Source: Candidatus Aminicenantes bacterium | GTDB lineage: Bacteria; Acidobacteriota; Aminicenantia; Aminicenantales; Saccharicenantaceae | DNA: 64,000 nt | Assembly: GCA_041320535.1 (NCBI GenBank) | Contig: JBGLNH010000001.1 | Coordinates: 1,022,253 to 1,086,252 of the forward strand | Reading direction: 5' to 3' | In this document: piece by piece, positions 35,149 through 62,871 of the stretch | How the letters are laid out: each line of letters opens with the position of its first letter | Position numbering within the stretch: position 1 is the stretch's first letter | The notes under the pieces: model-generated | What the model was told of the DNA's origin: nothing | The model's database searches: none | What the model saw: the letters and a program-made list of their open reading frames with translations, nothing else | Made by a program: the position numbers and the translations under genes

Positions 35149-37122
35149 ATGCCCATGAGCCGTTTCGTCGTCCGGAAGGAGGTCTCGAGCCTGCCCCGCC
35201 TTCCCCTGCGCGGCACGCTCGATCTGACCTACCGCTGCGGCAACGACTGCCGCCACTGCTGGCTGAGGCTCGCTCCGGACGCCCCGGAGGCCGCCGCGGA
35301 GCTCACGCTCGACGAGATCCGCGGGATCGTCGACGGGGCCCGGGCCCTGGGCTGCCGCGAGTGGGCCCTCTCGGGCGGCGAGCCCCTGCTCCGGCCCGAT
35401 TTCCCGGAGATCTTCGAGGCGGTCACCGGGCGGTCGGCCTGGTACACCCTGAACACGAACGGCGGGCTGATCACGCCGCGGACCGCGGCCATGCTGCGGC
35501 GGAAGGGCGCCAAGCTCGTCGCCCTGTACGGCGCCACGGCCGCGGTCCACGACGCCGTCACCCGGAACCCCGGCTCCTTCGAGGCCCTCGTCCGGGGCGT
35601 CGCCTACCTCCGGGAGGCCGGGGCGGGCTTCACCGTCCAGGTCGTGCCCATGAGGACGAACATCGGCGAGTTCGAGGCCATGGTCCGGCTGGCCGAGTCT
35701 TGGAGCCCGAGCTGGAGGATCGGCGCGACGTGGCTGTATCTCTCCGCCTCCGGCGACCCCGTCAAGAACCGGGAGATCGCGGCCGAGCGGCTCGATCCGG
35801 CCCAGGTCGTGTCGCTCGACCGGGTCGCGGGCGGGGGCCCTGTCGAGCTCGGCGGGGACGGAGAGCCGTCTTGCGCCTCGGCCGCGCCGGGCGGCCTCTA
35901 CGCGGCCTGCCTGGCCGGACGGCGCGACTTTCACGTCGATCCCTACGGCGGGCTGAGCTTCTGCTCGTTCGTCAAGGACCCCGCGCTGCGCGTCGACCTG
36001 CGCCGGACCGGGCTCGCCGAGGCCTGGGAGGACCGGTTGCCGCGCCTCGCCGCGGCCGTCGCGCCGTCCGCGGGCTACGCCGGCGGCTGCGGCGCCTGCG
36101 AGCTCCGCTCCGACTGCAAGTGGTGCCCGGTCTACGCCTATCTCGAAACGCGCGACCACTCGTCGAGGATCGAGAGCCTCTGCGCCGTCGCCCGCGAGAC
36201 GCGCCGCGTCCGGGAGGACTGGCTCCTCTCCCACCGCCGGCGCTTCCGCCTCGCCGGGATCGCGGTCGACGTCGAGGCCGACCTGCCCATCGGAGAGGGC
36301 ACGTTCGCCCCCAAGTTCGGGCCCTTCCGGGCCCCCGTCGACGGCCCGGCCGCGATCGTCCTCCACCATCACTTCGCGCTCCCGGACCGGCTCGACGCCC
36401 GCTCCCTGGGCCGCGAGGTCCATCGCCGGCCTCCGTGGGCGGTCTACCGCAAGGGGGATTCCTGGATCTACGTGATGATCCCGCCCGACCCGGCGGACGG
36501 CACGGTCCACCGCGTCATGGTCTTCGACGACGGGCACACCCGCGGGCACATCTACAGCCCGTCGGAGGAGCTCTTCCGGCGGGGCGGGCACGACTCGCTG
36601 GCCCTGCTGCCGTCGGACCAGCTCATTTTGGCCCGGGCCCTCCCGGCCTTCGGCGGCGTCTTCGTCCACGCCTCGGCGGTGGACATGGACGGGCACGGGC
36701 TCCTCTTCGCGGGGGCCTCGGAGGCGGGCAAGTCGACGATCGTCAAGCTGATCGGGGAGCGGGCCAAGGTCCTCTGCGACGACCGCGTCGTCGTCCGCAG
36801 GCACGACGGCGGCTTCCGCGTCCACGGCACATGGAACCACGGAGAGGTCACCCGCGTCTCGCCGGGCTCGGCCCCGCTCAGGGCGGTGTTCTTCCTGAGG
36901 CAGGCGGCCGCCAACCGCGCCGACCGGGTCAGCGGGCCCCGGGCCATCCTGCGGGACTTCCTGCCCCGGATCGTCCGGCCGCTCGTCTCGGCCGATTGGT
37001 GGGAGCGGGCCCTCGGCCTGGCCGAGGAGATCGTCCGCGAGGTCCCGTTCTACGATCTGTCCTTCGACAAGAGCGGCGCCGTCGCCGGCGTCCTCGGGGA
37101 TCTCCTGGAGGCGCGGGAATGA
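35149..37122 (+). CDS. Radical SAM/SPASM enzyme fused to a C-terminal HprK-like P-loop kinase domain
   Basis: CGNDCRHC, GGEPLLR, SPASM CGACELRSDCKWCP; C-terminal HASAV, GASEAGKST (Walker A), CDDR. Confidence 0.85.
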   Translation: MPMSRFVVRKEVSSLPRLPLRGTLDLTYRCGNDCRHCWLRLAPDAPEAAAELTLDEIRGIVDGARALGCREWALSGGEPLLRPDFPEIFEAVTGRSAWYTLNTNGGLITPRTAAMLRRKGAKLVALYGATAAVHDAVTRNPGSFEALVRGVAYLREAGAGFTVQVVPMRTNIGEFEAMVRLAESWSPSWRIGATWLYLSASGDPVKNREIAAERLDPAQVVSLDRVAGGGPVELGGDGEPSCASAAPGGLYAACLAGRRDFHVDPYGGLSFCSFVKDPALRVDLRRTGLAEAWEDRLPRLAAAVAPSAGYAGGCGACELRSDCKWCPVYAYLETRDHSSRIESLCAVARETRRVREDWLLSHRRRFRLAGIAVDVEADLPIGEGTFAPKFGPFRAPVDGPAAIVLHHHFALPDRLDARSLGREVHRRPPWAVYRKGDSWIYVMIPPDPADGTVHRVMVFDDGHTRGHIYSPSEELFRRGGHDSLALLPSDQLILARALPAFGGVFVHASAVDMDGHGLLFAGASEAGKSTIVKLIGERAKVLCDDRVVVRRHDGGFRVHGTWNHGEVTRVSPGSAPLRAVFFLRQAAANRADRVSGPRAILRDFLPRIVRPLVSADWWERALGLAEEIVREVPFYDLSFDKSGAVAGVLGDLLEARE

Positions 37123-38300
37123 CCGCCGCGAGTAGGTCCTACGTGAGGAAGGTCCCCTCGGGCCGGGACGGCCTGTGGGCGTCCGGCGGCCCGCCGCTCA
37201 CGCGGCTCGACATCGAGCTCACCGAGCGCTGCGACAACGATTGCCTCCACTGCTCGGTCAACCTTCCGGCCGGAGACGCCGGGGCCCGGGCCCGGGAATG
37301 GACCGCCGGCCGGTGGAAGGCGCTCCTCGACGAGGCGGCGGCGCTCGGGGCGCTCGTCGTCCGGCTGACCGGCGGCGAGCCGCTCCTGCGCGACGATTTC
37401 GGGGAGATCTACCTCCACGCGAGGGGGCTCGGCCTGAGGGTGATGCTCTTCACCAACGCGACGCTCGTGACGCCGCCGCTGGCCCGGCTCCTCCGGGACG
37501 TGCCCCCGCTCGAAGCGGTCGAGGTCTCAGTCTACGGGCTGACCGAGGGGACGTACGAGGCCGTGACCCGGAGGCCCGGATCGTTCGCCGCGTTCCGGCG
37601 GGGGTTCGAGCTCCTCCGCGGCCATGGCGTCCCCCTCGTGGTCAAGGGGGCCGTGCTCCCTCCGACCCGTCACGAGATGGACGCCTTCGAAGCCTGGGCG
37701 GCCGGGCTCGGCGGGAGCTCCGCCCGGCCCTCCTTCGCCCAGCTCTTCGACCTGCGGTCGCGGCGGGACGGGGACAAGAACGCCCTCATCGCCGCGCTGA
37801 GGATCGGCGGAGACGAGTTCGTCGCCCTCGCCCGGCGTCACGGGGAGGCGGCCGTCGAGGAGTGGCGGGAGTACTGCGCCCGCGCTTGCGCCCCCCGCGG
37901 CGACCGGCTGTTCACCTGCCTGCCGGCGGGCGGTTCGGCCGCGATCGACCCGTACGGCCGTCTTCAGTACTGCCTGGGACTGCGCCATCCGGCGACGGTC
38001 CTCGATCTCGACGCCGCCTCGCTCCGGACGGCCGTCGCGGATTTCCTGCCGCGCGTCCGGGCCATGCGGGCCGCGGACCCGGCCTATCTCGAGCGCTGCG
38101 GCCGGTGTTTTCTCAAGGGGCTCTGCGAACAGTGCCCGGCGAAATCCTGGGCCGAGCACGGCACGCTGGACACGCCGGTCGAATATCTCTGCGGCCTCGC
38201 CCACGCCCAGGCGGCGGCCGCGGGAATGCTCCGTCCGGGGGAGAAGGCCTGGACCGTCGCCGACGGTGAGGAACGGGCGGGAAGAAAAGGAGCGCCATGA
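37119..38300 (+). CDS. Radical SAM/SPASM maturase 2
   Basis: CDNDCLHC, GGEPLLR, FTNATL, CGRCFLKGLCEQCP; ATGA overlaps with both neighbours. Confidence 0.88.
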   Translation: MTAASRSYVRKVPSGRDGLWASGGPPLTRLDIELTERCDNDCLHCSVNLPAGDAGARAREWTAGRWKALLDEAAALGALVVRLTGGEPLLRDDFGEIYLHARGLGLRVMLFTNATLVTPPLARLLRDVPPLEAVEVSVYGLTEGTYEAVTRRPGSFAAFRRGFELLRGHGVPLVVKGAVLPPTRHEMDAFEAWAAGLGGSSARPSFAQLFDLRSRRDGDKNALIAALRIGGDEFVALARRHGEAAVEEWREYCARACAPRGDRLFTCLPAGGSAAIDPYGRLQYCLGLRHPATVLDLDAASLRTAVADFLPRVRAMRAADPAYLERCGRCFLKGLCEQCPAKSWAEHGTLDTPVEYLCGLAHAQAAAAGMLRPGEKAWTVADGEERAGRKGAP

Positions 38301-38602
38301 CCGCGAAGATCGATCTCGGCAAGGTTTACGGCCCGTCCGACGACGTCGTCGTCCGGGAGATCGAGGGGGAGATCGTCATCGTCCCCCTGGCCTCGGGCAT
38401 CGGCGACCTGGAGGACGAGCTCTTCACGCTGAACGAGACGGGCCGGGACATCTGGGCCAAGGTCGACGGGACGCGGCCGCTTGGGGCAGTCATCCGCGAT
38501 CTCGTCGCCGATTACGAGGCCCCCGAAGGGCTGGTCGAGGAGGACGTCGAGGGTTTCCTCCAGGAGCTCCTCGACCGCGGGATGATCGTCGAGAGGGGCT
38601 GA
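38297..38602 (+). CDS. PqqD-family RiPP recognition element
   Basis: VVVREIEGEIVIVP, FTLNETGRDIW, DG, FLQELLDRGMI. Confidence 0.88.
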   Translation: MTAKIDLGKVYGPSDDVVVREIEGEIVIVPLASGIGDLEDELFTLNETGRDIWAKVDGTRPLGAVIRDLVADYEAPEGLVEEDVEGFLQELLDRGMIVERG

Positions 38603-38607
38603 CCGCG

Positions 38608-38886
38608 ATGGCCGATTCTCCCCGCCGCCCCGCCGCCGCCGGCGATCTCCCCCTTCCGGGAGAGGCCCTGGCCGGGCTGATGGCGGCGGTCCTCGGGAAG
38701 GGCCTGCCTTTCCGTTTCGAGGCCCGCGGGGAGAGCATGCACCCGGCCATACGGCACGGGGACGTCGTCACGGTCGCCCCGGTCGCCGGCCGCGCGCCCA
38801 GGGCGGGCGACGTCGTCGCCTTCATCCATCCCGGGACTGGCGGGGTCCGCGTCCATAGGATCTTGGCCCTCGAGCGGGGTTCCTAG
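38608..38886 (+). CDS. S24/S26-family peptidase (Ser-His), 3'-truncated at a junction
   Basis: RGESMHPAIRHGD, GDVVAF, VHRI; the expected GDN motif is missing. Confidence 0.75.
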   Translation: MADSPRRPAAAGDLPLPGEALAGLMAAVLGKGLPFRFEARGESMHPAIRHGDVVTVAPVAGRAPRAGDVVAFIHPGTGGVRVHRILALERGS

Positions 38887-39530: not shown

Positions 39531-39665
39531 GGTCTCCTCCCCTAGCCTGGATTATTCACGAGCTGAGGCGGCTGCATATGCGAGGCGTCAAAGGCGAAGC
39601 TGTACTCGGAGTACTGCGAGCCCTTTGCAACGAAGCAGATGCGGCCGGATCGGCTTGCCCGAAGG

Positions 39666-39732
39666 GTGAAAACGCCGGTTTTATTTTTTGGGTGCTGAAG
39701 GAGAAATGCGGCGTTTTCATGAACAGTCCAGG
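39666..39732. repeat. Dispersed inverted-repeat element family B, copy 1 (immediately after rho stop)
   Basis: Minus strand CCTGGAC...GAAAACGCCGC-N30-CGGCGTTTTCAC; same arms at 60730-60794. Confidence 0.7.
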
Positions 39733-45075: not shown

Positions 45076-45160
45076 TAGGCAGAGCGGGACTCGAACCCGC
45101 ACTCCTTCATCAGGAACTAGGTCCTAAGCCTAGCGCGTCTGCCAATTCCGCCATCTGCCC
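45076..45160 (-). tRNA. tRNA-Leu (anticodon TAG)
   Basis: GGGCAGA/TCTGCCT acceptor stem, D-loop TGGC, anticodon stem CTAGG-CT-TAG-GA-CCTAG, long variable arm, GGTTCGAGTCC; CCA not encoded. Confidence 0.95.
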
Positions 45161-54486: not shown

Positions 54487-54561
54487 GCCCAGCGCGACGA
54501 GCGCGACCGCGGCGGCGAGACCGGCGAGCCTCGCGGGCGCCGACGCTTTCTGTCCGCTCAT
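54487..54561 (-). CDS. Signal-peptide start of an unidentified gene, cut at a junction
   Basis: MSGQKASAPARLAGLAAAVALVAL begins 4 nt after the recJ stop. Confidence 0.45.
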
Positions 54562-60189: not shown

Positions 60190-60705
60190 ATGGACGTTCC
60201 GCGCGCCCCCGAAGGATCGAGCCCCTCCCCCATCTGCGCCGCCTTCCTCCTCAAGCTCGGCCGGACGCAGGACAAGACGAAGCGGCAGCGCATCCTGGCG
60301 GCCTGCGTCAAGGTCCGCCGCCCGTGGGCCGAGGAGCTCCTGTGGGAGGCGCTGGCCGATCCCAACGAGGCCGTCCGGTCCTTCGTCGCCCGGGAGCTGC
60401 GCGACCGCCCGGCCATCCGCCTCGACCTGGCCCTGAGGAGGCTCCGCCTCCCGCCGTGGTGGGCCAGGAGCTCGGTCCTGAAGATCGTCGGCCGCCGCCG
60501 CGTCAGGGAAGCCCTCTCCGAGGTCGCCCGGGCGGCCGGCGACGTCAACGTCGACGTCCGCCGCTCCGCGGCCGAAGCGCTGGGCGAGATCGGCGGGGAA
60601 GAGGCGGTCCGGGCCCTCGTCCGCCTGAAGAAGGACGCCAACCCTTACGTGCGGGCGGCGGCCGAAGAGGCGATCGAAAAGACGAGCCGGGTCCGTTTCA
60701 GCTGA
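60190..60705 (+). CDS. Small HEAT-repeat protein
   Basis: DPNEAVR, DVNVDVRRSAAEALG, DANPYVRAAA. Confidence 0.75.
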   Translation: MDVPRAPEGSSPSPICAAFLLKLGRTQDKTKRQRILAACVKVRRPWAEELLWEALADPNEAVRSFVARELRDRPAIRLDLALRRLRLPPWWARSSVLKIVGRRRVREALSEVARAAGDVNVDVRRSAAEALGEIGGEEAVRALVRLKKDANPYVRAAAEEAIEKTSRVRFS

Positions 60706-60729
60706 GGCCCCGGGGCCGGCGCGCCTCAG

Positions 60730-60794
60730 CCTGGACCTGGCACGAAAACGCCGCTCTTGGTCTTCCTGTTGACGGAGAACTACGGCGTTTTCAC
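60730..60794. repeat. Family B inverted-repeat element, copy 2 (possible bidirectional terminator)
   Basis: CCTGGAC...GAAAACGCCGC-N28-CGGCGTTTTCAC between the convergent HEAT and precursor genes. Confidence 0.7.
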
Positions 60795-60806
60795 GAATGG
60801 CTCAGG

Positions 60807-60989
60807 TCAGCTGGCGTAGCGGGTGTCCGAGCAAGCCTGGCAACAGGCGGGATTCGAGGTGCAGTTGTCCTTGTGGTTGTAGGGCGCCACGGGCGGGGCC
60901 GTCTTGTGCTTGCAATGGCACAAGAGCGTCTCCTCCGGACGCCCCTTGAAGAGGACGATGAGCTCGGGCGTCTGCCATTGTTTCTTCAT
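60807..60989 (-). CDS. Putative RiPP precursor peptide (60 aa, six Cys)
   Basis: GGAGG SD, own promoter, leader MKKQWQTPEL (W/YxxPxL), Cys-rich core, adjacent to an rSAM/SPASM gene. Confidence 0.82.
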   Translation of the reverse strand: MKKQWQTPELIVLFKGRPEETLLCHCKHKTAPPVAPYNHKDNCTSNPACCQACSDTRYAS

Positions 60990-61024
60990 GGCCTTGGATC
61001 CTCCAAAAATGCTTCCTTTAGAGT

Positions 61025-61053
61025 ATGTTAGGCCGGAATCCCGGCAAAGTCAA
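61025..61053 (-). promoter_or_regulatory. sigma70-like promoter of the precursor
   Basis: TTGACT-N17-TAACAT; the -35 box overlaps the rSAM stop codon. Confidence 0.6.
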
Positions 61054-62177
61054 CCGGATTTTAAGCCCTCCGCCCGGGCCTCGGCGACCCGGCAGAAGGA
61101 TTCGACGGGGGAATCGAGGGAGCCCGTCTCGAGATAGGCGTGGGCCGGGCACCAGAGGCACAGGTTGACGAGGGGGCACTTCCCGCACTTGTCCAGGTAT
61201 TCCCTGCGGTCCGAGGTCCGGGACAGGACATCCGGCAGGAACCCGGTCCAGGCCTCGGCCAGGGGGCCCTTCCTCAGGTCGAAGAGGAAGTCCGGATGGT
61301 GGAGGGACAAGCACGGCCTCAGGTGGCCCTCCGGTCCGACCACGAAGCTCCTCTGGCCGACGCCGCAGCGGAAGATGTGGCGGCACTCGGGGGCGCAGCC
61401 GTCGGGCGCCCCTTCGGCCGGAAGGAGGTCGCCGCAGGCGGCCTGGAGGGCGCCGAAGCGCTGCGGGTCGGCCCTCTCCAGCCGGGCCACTTCCCGGCCG
61501 CTCAGCCGCTCGGCCTTGATGAGCGTGTTCTTGGCCTCGTCGCGGTCGAAGCGGAGATGGAGCTGGGGATCGAAGCGGTAGTAGTCCTTGGTCCGGGCGC
61601 GGCAGAAGTCGGCGATCGCCGGGATCTCGTGCTTGTTGGAGCGCAGGGCCATGGCCTTGAGCCGGACGGGCAGCCCGCCGGCCAGGAGGCGGTCGAGGCC
61701 GGTCCTGAACGCGTCGAACGAGCCGGGCGTTCTGGTCACCCGCTCGTAGGTCTCGCGGGTCACCCCGTAGACCGTCACCTCGATCTCCCGGGGCGGGAAC
61801 TTCTTGAGGAACCGGACGTGCTCGGCCTTGACCAGCGTCGCGTTGGTGAATACGGACAGGAGCAGCCCTTTCCCGAGCAGGGCCGTGTAGAGCTCGAAGA
61901 AATCCTTCCTCAGCAGAGGCTCGCCGCCGGTGATCAGGCACCAGACCGCGCCGAGGGCCGCGGCCTCCCCGCCGATCCGCCCGATCTCCTCGGCGGTGAG
62001 CTCGCGCTTGCGGGCGGACCGGTCCCCCGCCGGGAGGTTGACGTAGCAGTGGCGGCAATCGAGGTTGCAGCGCGCCGTCGCCTCGAGGTCGAAGCTGAAC
62101 ACGGCCCGGCCGGCGGCCATCTTGTCCCAGAGCCGGAATTCGGGGAGCGGCCGGCGGACGACGAACTCCTTGGTCAC
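61050..62177 (-). CDS. Radical SAM/SPASM maturase 3
   Basis: CNLDCRHC, GGEPLLR, FTNATL, CGKCPLVNLCLWCP; GTG start in a GTGA overlap with a cut-off upstream gene. Confidence 0.88.
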   Translation of the reverse strand: MTKEFVVRRPLPEFRLWDKMAAGRAVFSFDLEATARCNLDCRHCYVNLPAGDRSARKRELTAEEIGRIGGEAAALGAVWCLITGGEPLLRKDFFELYTALLGKGLLLSVFTNATLVKAEHVRFLKKFPPREIEVTVYGVTRETYERVTRTPGSFDAFRTGLDRLLAGGLPVRLKAMALRSNKHEIPAIADFCRARTKDYYRFDPQLHLRFDRDEAKNTLIKAERLSGREVARLERADPQRFGALQAACGDLLPAEGAPDGCAPECRHIFRCGVGQRSFVVGPEGHLRPCLSLHHPDFLFDLRKGPLAEAWTGFLPDVLSRTSDRREYLDKCGKCPLVNLCLWCPAHAYLETGSLDSPVESFCRVAEARAEGLKSG

Positions 62178-62204
62178 GCCGTCCCTCCCCCGCCCCGGCG
62201 GAGC

Positions 62205-62871
62205 GTCCGGCGGCGCCGGCGAGGCCGCGGACCGGGTCCTCGTCCTCGAGGCCGGCGTGCCCTTCCTGGTCGGCCTGGCCGGCGGCCAGAAAACGGGCTT
62301 CTATCTCGACCAGCGCGAGTCCCGCCGGCTCGTCCGCGAAACGGCCGCGGGCCGCCGCGTCCTCAACACCTTCGCTTACACGGGGTCCTTCTCGGTCTCG
62401 GCCCTGCTCGGCGGCGCCGTCCGGGCCGATTCCGTCGACTCCTCGGAGGCGGCCCTCGCTTTGGCCCGGGAGAACTTCGAGCTCAACGGCCTCCCTTCGG
62501 ACTCCGGTCTCTTCTTCACCGCCGACGTCTTCGAGTTCCTCCGCGAGCCGGCCCTCGACCACGATTTCATCATCCTCGACCCGCCGGCCTTCGCCAAGAA
62601 GCGGACCGACGTCGTCGCCGCCTGCCGGGGCTACAAGGACATCAACCGGCTGGCTTTCCAGCGGGTCGGGAGGCCCGGTCTCGTCCTGACCTTCTCCTGC
62701 TCCCATTTCGTCGACGAGACCCTTTTCCAGCAGGTCGTGTTCCAGGCGGCGCACGAGGCGGGGAGGCGGGTCCGCATCGTCCAGAAGCACCGCCAGGCCT
62801 TCGACCACCCCGTCAACGTCTACCATCCCGAGACCGCCTACCTGAAAGGGTTCCTGCTCTACGTCGACTGA
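62205..62871 (+). CDS. RlmI/RlmK-type rRNA methyltransferase, C-terminal half
   Basis: GQKTGFYLDQR, FAYTGSFS, LDPPAF, TFSCS, DHP, YLKG; PUA domain missing. Confidence 0.82.

Follow-up and report, generated by a model that had tools for sequence, protein, structure and literature searches.

A conserved radical SAM/SPASM peptide cluster with an ScmC-like kinase-fold domain in Candidatus Aminicenantes

Organization of the cluster

The stretch of DNA analyzed here, the window, comprises 64,000 nucleotides of a Candidatus Aminicenantes bacterium (GenBank assembly GCA_041320535.1, contig JBGLNH010000001.1, positions 1,022,253 to 1,086,252). It contains a gene for a 60-residue Cys-rich peptide, named F, which is very probably the precursor gene of a peptide made by the ribosome and modified post-translationally (RiPP) and is accompanied by its maturases. 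Comparison with related genomes argues for a real, conserved and apparently uncharacterized RiPP system built on radical S-adenosylmethionine (rSAM) enzymes with SPASM domains, and F is, from its gene context, the last gene of a predicted six-gene operon, A to F, in Candidatus Aminicenantes. About 28 Aminicenantes, the GTDB species representatives that carry the precursor, all have the genes in the order A-B-C-D-E-F. In the Aminicenantes, F is single-copy, the cluster lies between dtd and the HEAT/rib genes, and the precursors are 49–97% identical across species; beyond F, the relatives carry a convergent HEAT-repeat gene and then the rib genes. At less than even odds, this system may be the first representative of a large RiPP class of 1335 or more clusters, whose members would be both rSAM-crosslinked and C-terminally phosphorylated by an ScmC-type enzyme. 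With the same reserve, the class would extend over Aminicenantes, Thermodesulfobacteriota and many uncultured lineages, and would be marked by a KxWxxPxL...PEExVLxxCK junction of leader and core, by a Cys count of three to four and by a Ser/Thr that is obligatory at the C terminus.

The genes of the cluster and their parts are located as follows.

35149–37122, plus strand: gene A, an rSAM/SPASM protein fused to an ScmC domain, 657 residues here and about 655 in relatives
about 36190–37122, plus strand: the ScmC-like C-terminal domain of A, with a phosphoenolpyruvate carboxykinase (PEPCK)/HPr-kinase P-loop fold
37119–38300, plus strand: gene B, an rSAM/SPASM protein with the full SPASM Cys pattern, 393 residues here and about 393–416 in relatives
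38297–38602, plus strand: gene C, a PqqD-family peptide-binding protein of 101 residues, the RiPP recognition element (RRE) of the cluster
38608–38886, plus strand: gene D, an S24/S26-type peptidase of about 165 residues in relatives, represented here by its N-terminal ~92 residues with the GESMHP Ser motif
62174–62227, minus strand: the tail of D, its last 17 codons (..RRTLRRGGGGTA and stop), with a contig end at about 62227
61050–62177, minus strand: gene E, an rSAM/SPASM protein of 375 residues with no fused RRE domain
60807–60989, minus strand: gene F, the precursor gene, 60 residues with six Cys, whose translation matches MKKQWQTPELIVLFKGRPEETLLCHCKHKTAPPVAPYNHKDNCTSNPACCQACSDTRYAS exactly
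F, residues 1 to about 23: leader (KxWxxPxL..GRPEE.LL), with the core starting at about C24/C26-K27
F, core: C26, C43, C50 and C53 conserved, Ser60 at the C terminus

As located by tblastn, A to D occupy positions 35149–38886 of the plus strand, 23 kb from E and F. Gene D breaks off at a contig end near 38888, and the window lacks some 160 bp of it. Three public assemblies of the same population (GCA_041304285.1, GCA_041304065.1 and GCA_041304165.1) have contigs that are 99.9% identical to the window and bear the six genes side by side. The ends of these contigs coincide with junctions in the window, which lie at about 31015, 38888, 54495–54546 and 62227. Genes are cut on either side of the junctions: the S24 peptidase and an Asp-Glu racemase at about 38888, RodA and an LptD-like gene at about 54495–54546, and the S24 tail and RlmI, which is without its N-terminal ~180 residues, at about 62227. 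A genomic inversion was considered as the cause of the 23-kb split and rejected, since the junctions of the window have no repeats, genes are cut there and the junctions are ends of public contigs. The window consists of contigs of a metagenome-assembled genome (MAG) joined without spacers; the separation of A–D from E–F is therefore not biological, and findings that span the junctions are to be treated as artefacts.

An earlier sequence-only reading of this DNA had described a Cys-rich precursor with a PqqD-recognized leader next to an rSAM/SPASM maturase, and had suggested a possibly uncharacterized RiPP. The 60-residue reading frame is indeed present at 60807–60989 with the exact translation and six Cys, the 375-residue E adjoins it, and the operon also includes a stand-alone PqqD gene. 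The homology search with the leader and the mapping of neighbors, which that reading had called for, placed the peptide family beside rSAM/SPASM genes in 35 loci from genomes and in the majority of metagenome loci of adequate length. Its suggestion of an uncharacterized Cys-rich rSAM/SPASM RiPP is supported by the comparative evidence and by the lack of a curated family match. It had seen two of the six genes; the kinase-like domain, the peptidase, the C-terminal Ser and the contig junctions had escaped it.

The precursor and its peptide family

Thirteen public homologues of F were found, with 57–92% identity, one of them named Candidatus Aminicenantes, and a scan of the GTDB species representatives for the peptide family gave 35 loci. 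Among 29 distinct Aminicenantes alleles, 11, 3 and 21 of the 23 leader codons are variable at the first, second and third position, respectively. The leader differences are mostly synonymous (3217, against 1253 nonsynonymous), and the core is more variable than the leader (3667 synonymous against 4363 nonsynonymous). RiPP precursors typically show a conserved leader joined to a variable core; F has both in a short reading frame, and lies beside modifying enzymes and an RRE. In view of the homologues, the 35 GTDB loci, the codon-position pattern with its synonymous excess, and the conserved promoter and Shine-Dalgarno sequence, F is, on these comparative grounds, a small reading frame under coding selection and a genuine RiPP precursor gene.

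A profile of the Aminicenantes peptides was searched against 1.84 billion representative proteins (clusters at 50% identity, E ≤ 1e-3) and retrieved 1335 clusters related to F; the best 148 are almost all peptides of 55–65 residues. The family pattern reads MKKxWxxPxLxxLxRGxPEExVLxxCK, then 13–18 residues, a Cys, 5–9 residues, CxxC, 5–6 residues and a Ser/Thr. The columns W5, P8, E20, L23, C26, K27 and C43 are invariant and C50 and C53 nearly so. Counted from the CK, four Cys are present in 116 of 139 representatives. The C-terminal residue of the 113 intact representatives is Ser in 97, Thr in 15 and Ala in 1, that is, Ser/Thr in 112/113 compared with a background frequency of 18% (in the core composition, Ser makes up 10.9% and Thr 7.5%), and 85 of them have exactly six residues after the last Cys. 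Over the ~1300 clusters, core conservation is limited to the Cys, the Lys that follows the first of them and the Ser/Thr at the end. Aromatic, Asn/Asp and Gly-Pro positions are frequent in the cores, and no aromatic or acidic position is conserved family-wide. The core of F opens with CHCKH, a motif limited to one Aminicenantes subgroup.

The family-wide alignment was too divergent to seed a scan of metagenomes, and the PEEAVLxxCK subset was used instead, so that the metagenome sample is biased to one leader variant. The scan gave 80 loci with 122 peptides and up to six tandem precursors per locus, and at least one cluster enzyme was found in 58 of the 80. The 29 loci of at least 5 kb carry rSAM genes in 23 cases, PqqD in 19, the S24 peptidase in 19 and an ScmC-like gene in 14, with all four in 12. 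The ScmC-like proteins are either fused to an rSAM domain (650–750 residues) or stand alone (300–340 residues). The stand-alone form occurs in two Thermodesulfobacteriota MAGs (L043 and L044), together with B, C, D, E and two precursors per locus. In L045, two precursors stand at the end of a contig, with no more than a weak rSAM-like match close by. A match in a Chloroflexia genome (L042) was rejected as a full member, having no rSAM, PqqD or ScmC neighbors; it is an orphan or a doubtful member.

Tandem arrays of four to six precursors were observed in L103 (754–2854), L080 (405–1766), L071, L104 and L125, with near-identical leaders, hypervariable cores and Ser/Thr ends. In L046 (9029–13088), a stand-alone ScmC-like gene is directly followed by a 56-residue family-like peptide and by a 939-residue Ser/Thr kinase with tetratricopeptide repeats, with no rSAM gene nearby. 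A further ScmC cassette, L047 (301–4093), encodes an S24-like protein of 122 residues, an ScmC of 263, a PqqD of 96, a 42-residue peptide (MDKKRPYEPPAVTSEQIFETTALACGKKTAQGGKCNTRPKAS), an rSAM/SPASM protein of 355 and an NTP_transf_5 protein of 375. Its peptide ends in ..KAS and has an A-C-G-K junction, and the cassette is more distant than the family loci.

The radical SAM enzymes, the PqqD protein and the peptidase

E carries the rSAM motif C37x3C41x2C44 and matches the Pfam model Radical_SAM (PF04055) with 73.1 bits, against a cut-off of 29.5. The motif starts at residue 37, and residues 1–25 are modelled with a predicted local distance difference test (pLDDT) score below 50. Its SPASM Cys are found at positions 271, 289, 331, 334, 340, 343 and 362, and the Pfam SPASM model scores 19.3 bits, just below its cut-off of 21.5. 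The N-terminal part of A, B and E all contain the CX3CX2C motif and the seven-Cys SPASM pattern expected for two auxiliary clusters, CX9-15GX4C...CX2CX5CX3C...C, in which CX2 replaces CX3 in the last interval, and their rSAM domains are paralogous, with 32–42% identity. The model of E (pLDDT 77.7) has SkfB as its top structural match, with PqqE, MoaA, SuiB, anSME, ChlB and EpeE about equal, and the modelled fold confirms E as a predicted peptide-modifying SPASM enzyme. As a guide to chemistry the fold search was set aside, since thioether-forming, C–C crosslinking, anSME and epimerase enzymes score alike. C matches the PqqD model PF05402 with 57 bits; as none of the three rSAM enzymes has a fused RRE, this stand-alone protein is the sole candidate for leader binding. 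D retains the SM.P serine motif and the KGDN lysine motif.

The ScmC-like domain

The C-terminal 310 residues of A, modelled with a pLDDT of 93.5, have the PEPCK/HPr-kinase P-loop fold with its His, P-loop and catalytic DD. Foldseek searches of the PDB matched the domain to PEP carboxykinases (E = 3e-7) and to HPr kinase/phosphorylases (HPrK/P; E about 1e-5, TMt 0.47–0.48). When aligned to the L. casei HPrK/P, the His, the GxSxxGKS P-loop and the DDR motif are retained, and H160, G180, K181, T183 and R203 are invariant among 34 homologues of the domain. The curated models that rank first are ScmC, HprK-related kinase B and HPr(Ser) kinase, all below their cut-offs. The HPr(Ser) kinase and the HprK-related kinase A and B models score 24 against 240, 14 against 200 and 29 against 200, respectively, and the Pfam model Hpr_kinase_C (PF07475) 19.2 against 33.3.

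Homologues of HPr kinase phosphorylate the C-terminal Ser of the lasso precursors of paeninodin and pseudomycoidin, largely irrespective of the remaining sequence, and a nucleotidyltransferase then glycosylates the phosphate in such systems (PMC8498205). The pairing of ScmC with NTP_transf_5 and a Ser-ending peptide in L047 is the same kinase/nucleotidyltransferase pairing as in pseudomycoidin clusters.

Proposed maturation and its alternatives

We lean towards a single explanation of the six-gene system as a RiPP pathway. By analogy with RRE-dependent RiPPs, the PqqD protein would bind the conserved leader (W5, P8, L10, PEE, L23). The SPASM enzymes B and E, together with the rSAM domain of A in the lineages that carry the fusion, would abstract hydrogen from the core, and the conserved C26, in the invariant C-K, C43, C50 and C53 would be crosslinked, most probably in thioether rings of the sactipeptide/ranthipeptide type. 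The ScmC-like P-loop domain would use ATP to phosphorylate the invariant C-terminal Ser/Thr, and the S24/S26 Ser-Lys peptidase is predicted to trim the leader near the VLxxCK junction. Thioether crosslinks, suggested by the conserved Cys and the full SPASM domains, seem to us evenly balanced between right and wrong; among the crosslinks they are the most likely because family-wide conservation in the core extends only to the Cys, the Lys following the first one and the C-terminal Ser/Thr. Phosphorylation of the C-terminal Ser/Thr, to which the fold, the motifs and the co-occurrence point, may well take place, at a likelihood just short of even.

Several observations weigh against this explanation. 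The Aminicenantes operon has no exporter or immunity gene, six of the 29 metagenome loci of at least 5 kb have no enzyme beside their precursors, and no cleavage site of the S24 peptidase could be identified in the precursor. The fold of E cannot separate thioether formation from C–C or C–O crosslinking or epimerization. As for the ScmC-like domain, its best fold matches are PEP carboxykinases at a TM-score of only about 0.45, and its sequence similarity to HPr kinases is weak (E = 0.23 pairwise and 8e-4 by profile, below all curated cut-offs), so that it may catalyze another ATP-dependent reaction. The fixed C-x5/6-Ser/Thr spacing would also suit a ring that closes between the last Cys and the C-terminal residue.

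The last two points lead to a first alternative, which we hold to be rather doubtful: the terminal Ser/Thr would not be phosphorylated, and would instead accept a thioether or another ring from the last Cys or be recognized by the peptidase or in export, while the ScmC-like domain would act as an ATP-dependent scaffold or chaperone, or on another group. The six-residue spacing of the 85 representatives and the distance of the domain from HPr kinases speak for it. CteB joins a Cys to a Thr five residues downstream. However, the P-loop, His and DD catalytic motifs are kept, and the distant L047 cassette combines ScmC with a nucleotidyltransferase and a Ser-ending peptide. The selection of the C-terminal Ser of RiPP precursors by HPr-kinase homologues (PMC8498205) likewise argues for phosphorylation.

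A second alternative, which we judge unlikely, keeps the cluster and changes the chemistry: the enzymes would form C–C or C–O crosslinks, as do PqqE, SuiB and the triceptide and rotapeptide enzymes, or epimerize residues, as does EpeE, and the Cys would form disulfides or bind metal. Indeed, PqqE, SuiB, ChlB and EpeE rank as high as SkfB in the fold search, the cores abound in aromatic, Asn/Asp and Gly-Pro positions, and the CHCKH at the core start resembles a metal-binding motif. Against this, no aromatic or acidic position is conserved over the ~1300 clusters, in which the Cys, the Lys behind the first Cys and the final Ser/Thr are the only conserved core residues, and CHCKH is found in one Aminicenantes subgroup only.

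It is more improbable still that the Aminicenantes product is a peptide-derived cofactor or intracellular factor, similar to pyrroloquinoline quinone (PQQ) or mycofactocin, rather than a secreted bioactive peptide. The single-copy precursor, the fixed chromosomal position and the lack of a transporter in the Aminicenantes operon are consistent with such a role, but outside the Aminicenantes the arrays of up to six precursors with hypervariable cores are typical of diversified bioactive peptides, and the 37-residue core is nearly fully kept in length.

Comparison with known systems

The closest architecture is that of the SynChlorMet system (ScmC TIGR04249, ScmD TIGR04248, ScmE TIGR04250 and ScmF TIGR04251), which shares the module set of an ScmC-type P-loop protein, a PqqD homologue and at least two PqqE-like rSAM/SPASM enzymes. 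The ScmC model is the best match for the C-terminal domain of A, whose precomputed Pfam label is PF27840 (ScmC). However, the SynChlorMet cut-offs are not reached, with scores of 57.7 against 125 for ScmC, 23 against 100 for ScmD, 76 against 400 for ScmE and 85 against 400 for ScmF, and the enzymes of the wider family likewise fall below them. In contrast with SynChlorMet, ScmC here frequently forms one protein with a third rSAM domain, and the gene set includes an S24 peptidase. To our knowledge, the SynChlorMet precursor has been described as not identified. Judged by these scores, the predicted cluster is SCM-like in architecture and not a member of SynChlorMet.

With the sactipeptides and ranthipeptides (AlbA, SkfB, StsB, CteB/SCIFF, PapB and NxxcB), the cluster has in common a Cys-rich core, SPASM maturases and leader recognition through a PqqD-like domain. 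The thioethers of these peptides join the Cys sulfur to an alpha carbon in sactipeptides and to a beta or gamma carbon in ranthipeptides. It differs from them by an RRE that is a separate protein and not an N-terminal domain, by two to three paralogous rSAM enzymes, by the kinase-like domain and by the obligatory C-terminal Ser/Thr. Scores remain under the maturase cut-offs (StsB 74 against 625, AlbA 43 against 850, PapB 41 against 340), and the SCIFF model gave no match to the peptide at E ≤ 1.

The paeninodin and pseudomycoidin lasso systems also possess a PqqD-type RRE, an aromatic-x-x-P-x-L leader and an HPr-kinase-fold protein, and their Ser-ending peptides recall the one found here. They are distinguished by the Asn-synthetase-like lasso cyclase and the B2 protease, both absent from this cluster, in which rSAM/SPASM enzymes would be the backbone-forming enzymes and the kinase-like domain belongs to a distinct family, ScmC. 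The sequence-only reading had called the leader lasso-type: the aromatic-x-x-P-x-L motif is shared, but the resemblance is weak, since the lasso leader model NF033524 scores 13.7 bits against a cut-off of 27 and no cyclase is present. That reading was right to set the peptide apart from SCIFF, and no SCIFF, Pfam or NCBIfam match was found.

The PQQ and mycofactocin systems (PqqA/D/E and MftA/B/C) are similar in their small peptide, PqqD-type chaperone and SPASM rSAM enzyme, and the Aminicenantes cluster resembles them in being fixed and without an exporter. PqqE and MftC scores are far under their cut-offs, and the long Cys-rich hypervariable core and the multi-copy precursors of the family set it apart. 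Assignment to a curated family was rejected altogether: the peptide reaches only the sub-threshold lasso leader match, and the SCIFF, ACGX, GeoRSP, PQQ, mycofactocin and other maturase models score far below their cut-offs for each of the enzymes A, B and E. The peptide is not covered by any model of Pfam or NCBIfam, and 13 of the 13 homologues have no precomputed Pfam entry. A search of papers available without subscription yielded nothing relevant on the ScmC/PqqD/rSAM cassette, SynChlorMet, Aminicenantes RiPPs, phosphorylated ranthipeptides or the leader strings; an earlier description in subscription-only papers is possible.

Expression signals and surroundings of the precursor gene

The signals that flank F are the following.

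60999–61004, minus strand: Shine-Dalgarno sequence GGAGGA, 9 nt upstream of the ATG and kept in the orthologous loci
61025–61053, minus strand: sigma-70-like promoter of F, TTGACT-17-TAACAT, from a consensus scan
about 60742–60795, minus strand: hairpin with a stem of about 14 bp and a UUUU run in its 3' arm

The promoter is the single sigma-70-like site in the scanned region, 60600–62300, against 0.0 expected from shuffled sequences, and the TGA stop of E falls inside its -35 hexamer. In about 22 orthologous Aminicenantes loci, the -35 TTGAC, the -10 TAAnAT, an AGGAAGC element and the Shine-Dalgarno sequence are conserved and the 17-nt spacer varies; conservation of the boxes while the spacer changes indicates that the promoter is more than a chance match. 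We propose that this dedicated promoter is strong and would supply the substrate in excess. The spacer itself (61031–61047, minus strand) is, here and in the orthologues, usually a GC palindrome (GCCG..N..CGGC) whose sequence shifts between species with its symmetry kept. It might fold into a hairpin at the 3' terminus of the transcript of the upstream rSAM gene, or serve as an operator.

The Shine-Dalgarno sequence, the promoter and the downstream inverted repeat that the sequence-only reading had pointed out were all recovered, the promoter as the sole site of the scan and the repeat as the U-run hairpin. Its view of a separately transcribed precursor holds as far as the conserved promoter of F is concerned; read-through into F from the upstream genes may occur in addition. 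The hairpin lies between the convergent F and HEAT-repeat genes and is likely a bidirectional terminator; the z-score of the whole 107-nt hairpin stretch is only -1.6.

With these signals, the weakest alternative, a chance reading frame in DNA whose high GC content yields many spurious ones, with the rSAM enzyme acting on another substrate, has a vanishingly small likelihood and is refuted by the comparative data: the synonymous excess, the conserved promoter and Shine-Dalgarno sequence, the 1335 related clusters and the constant adjacency of the enzymes all argue for a true gene.

The HEAT-repeat gene encodes a 171-residue protein at about 60190–60705 on the plus strand (10536–11051 in L006) and faces the precursor gene in convergent orientation in each of the Aminicenantes loci examined. 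Aminicenantes genomes also contain a dispersed repeat of about 140–170 nt (L006 10244–10412, window 39537–39670 on the minus strand, L032 473–613 and L028 10198–10262). The repeat has inserted immediately behind the precursor terminator in L006 and L007, with a duplication of about 80 nt of the 3' end of the precursor and the hairpin. It may be similar to a miniature inverted-repeat transposable element. Neither the intergenic regions nor the inserted repeat matched an RNA family of Rfam, and the only match at the gathering threshold in the window is a tRNA gene at 45076–45160 on the minus strand.

Significance

RiPPs made by rSAM/SPASM enzymes are productive ground for finding new peptide chemistry and bioactivity. 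The family described here is large and phylogenetically broad, and joins two to three paralogous SPASM enzymes, an ScmC kinase-fold domain and a putative S24 peptidase for the leader. For the rSAM enzymes, the Cys pattern and the invariant C-K junction are defined targets, and the near-absolute rule of a C-terminal Ser/Thr makes a simple testable prediction for ScmC. If the proposal of a crosslinked and C-terminally phosphorylated class is true, the ScmC family would gain a function, and the kind of substrate handled by the ScmC/PqqD/SPASM cassettes of the SynChlorMet type would be revealed. Aminicenantes are known mainly from metagenome-assembled genomes, and the cluster would give a rare view of their secondary metabolism; its single chromosomal position in all of the ~28 Aminicenantes representatives that carry the precursor hints at a physiological rather than an accessory role.

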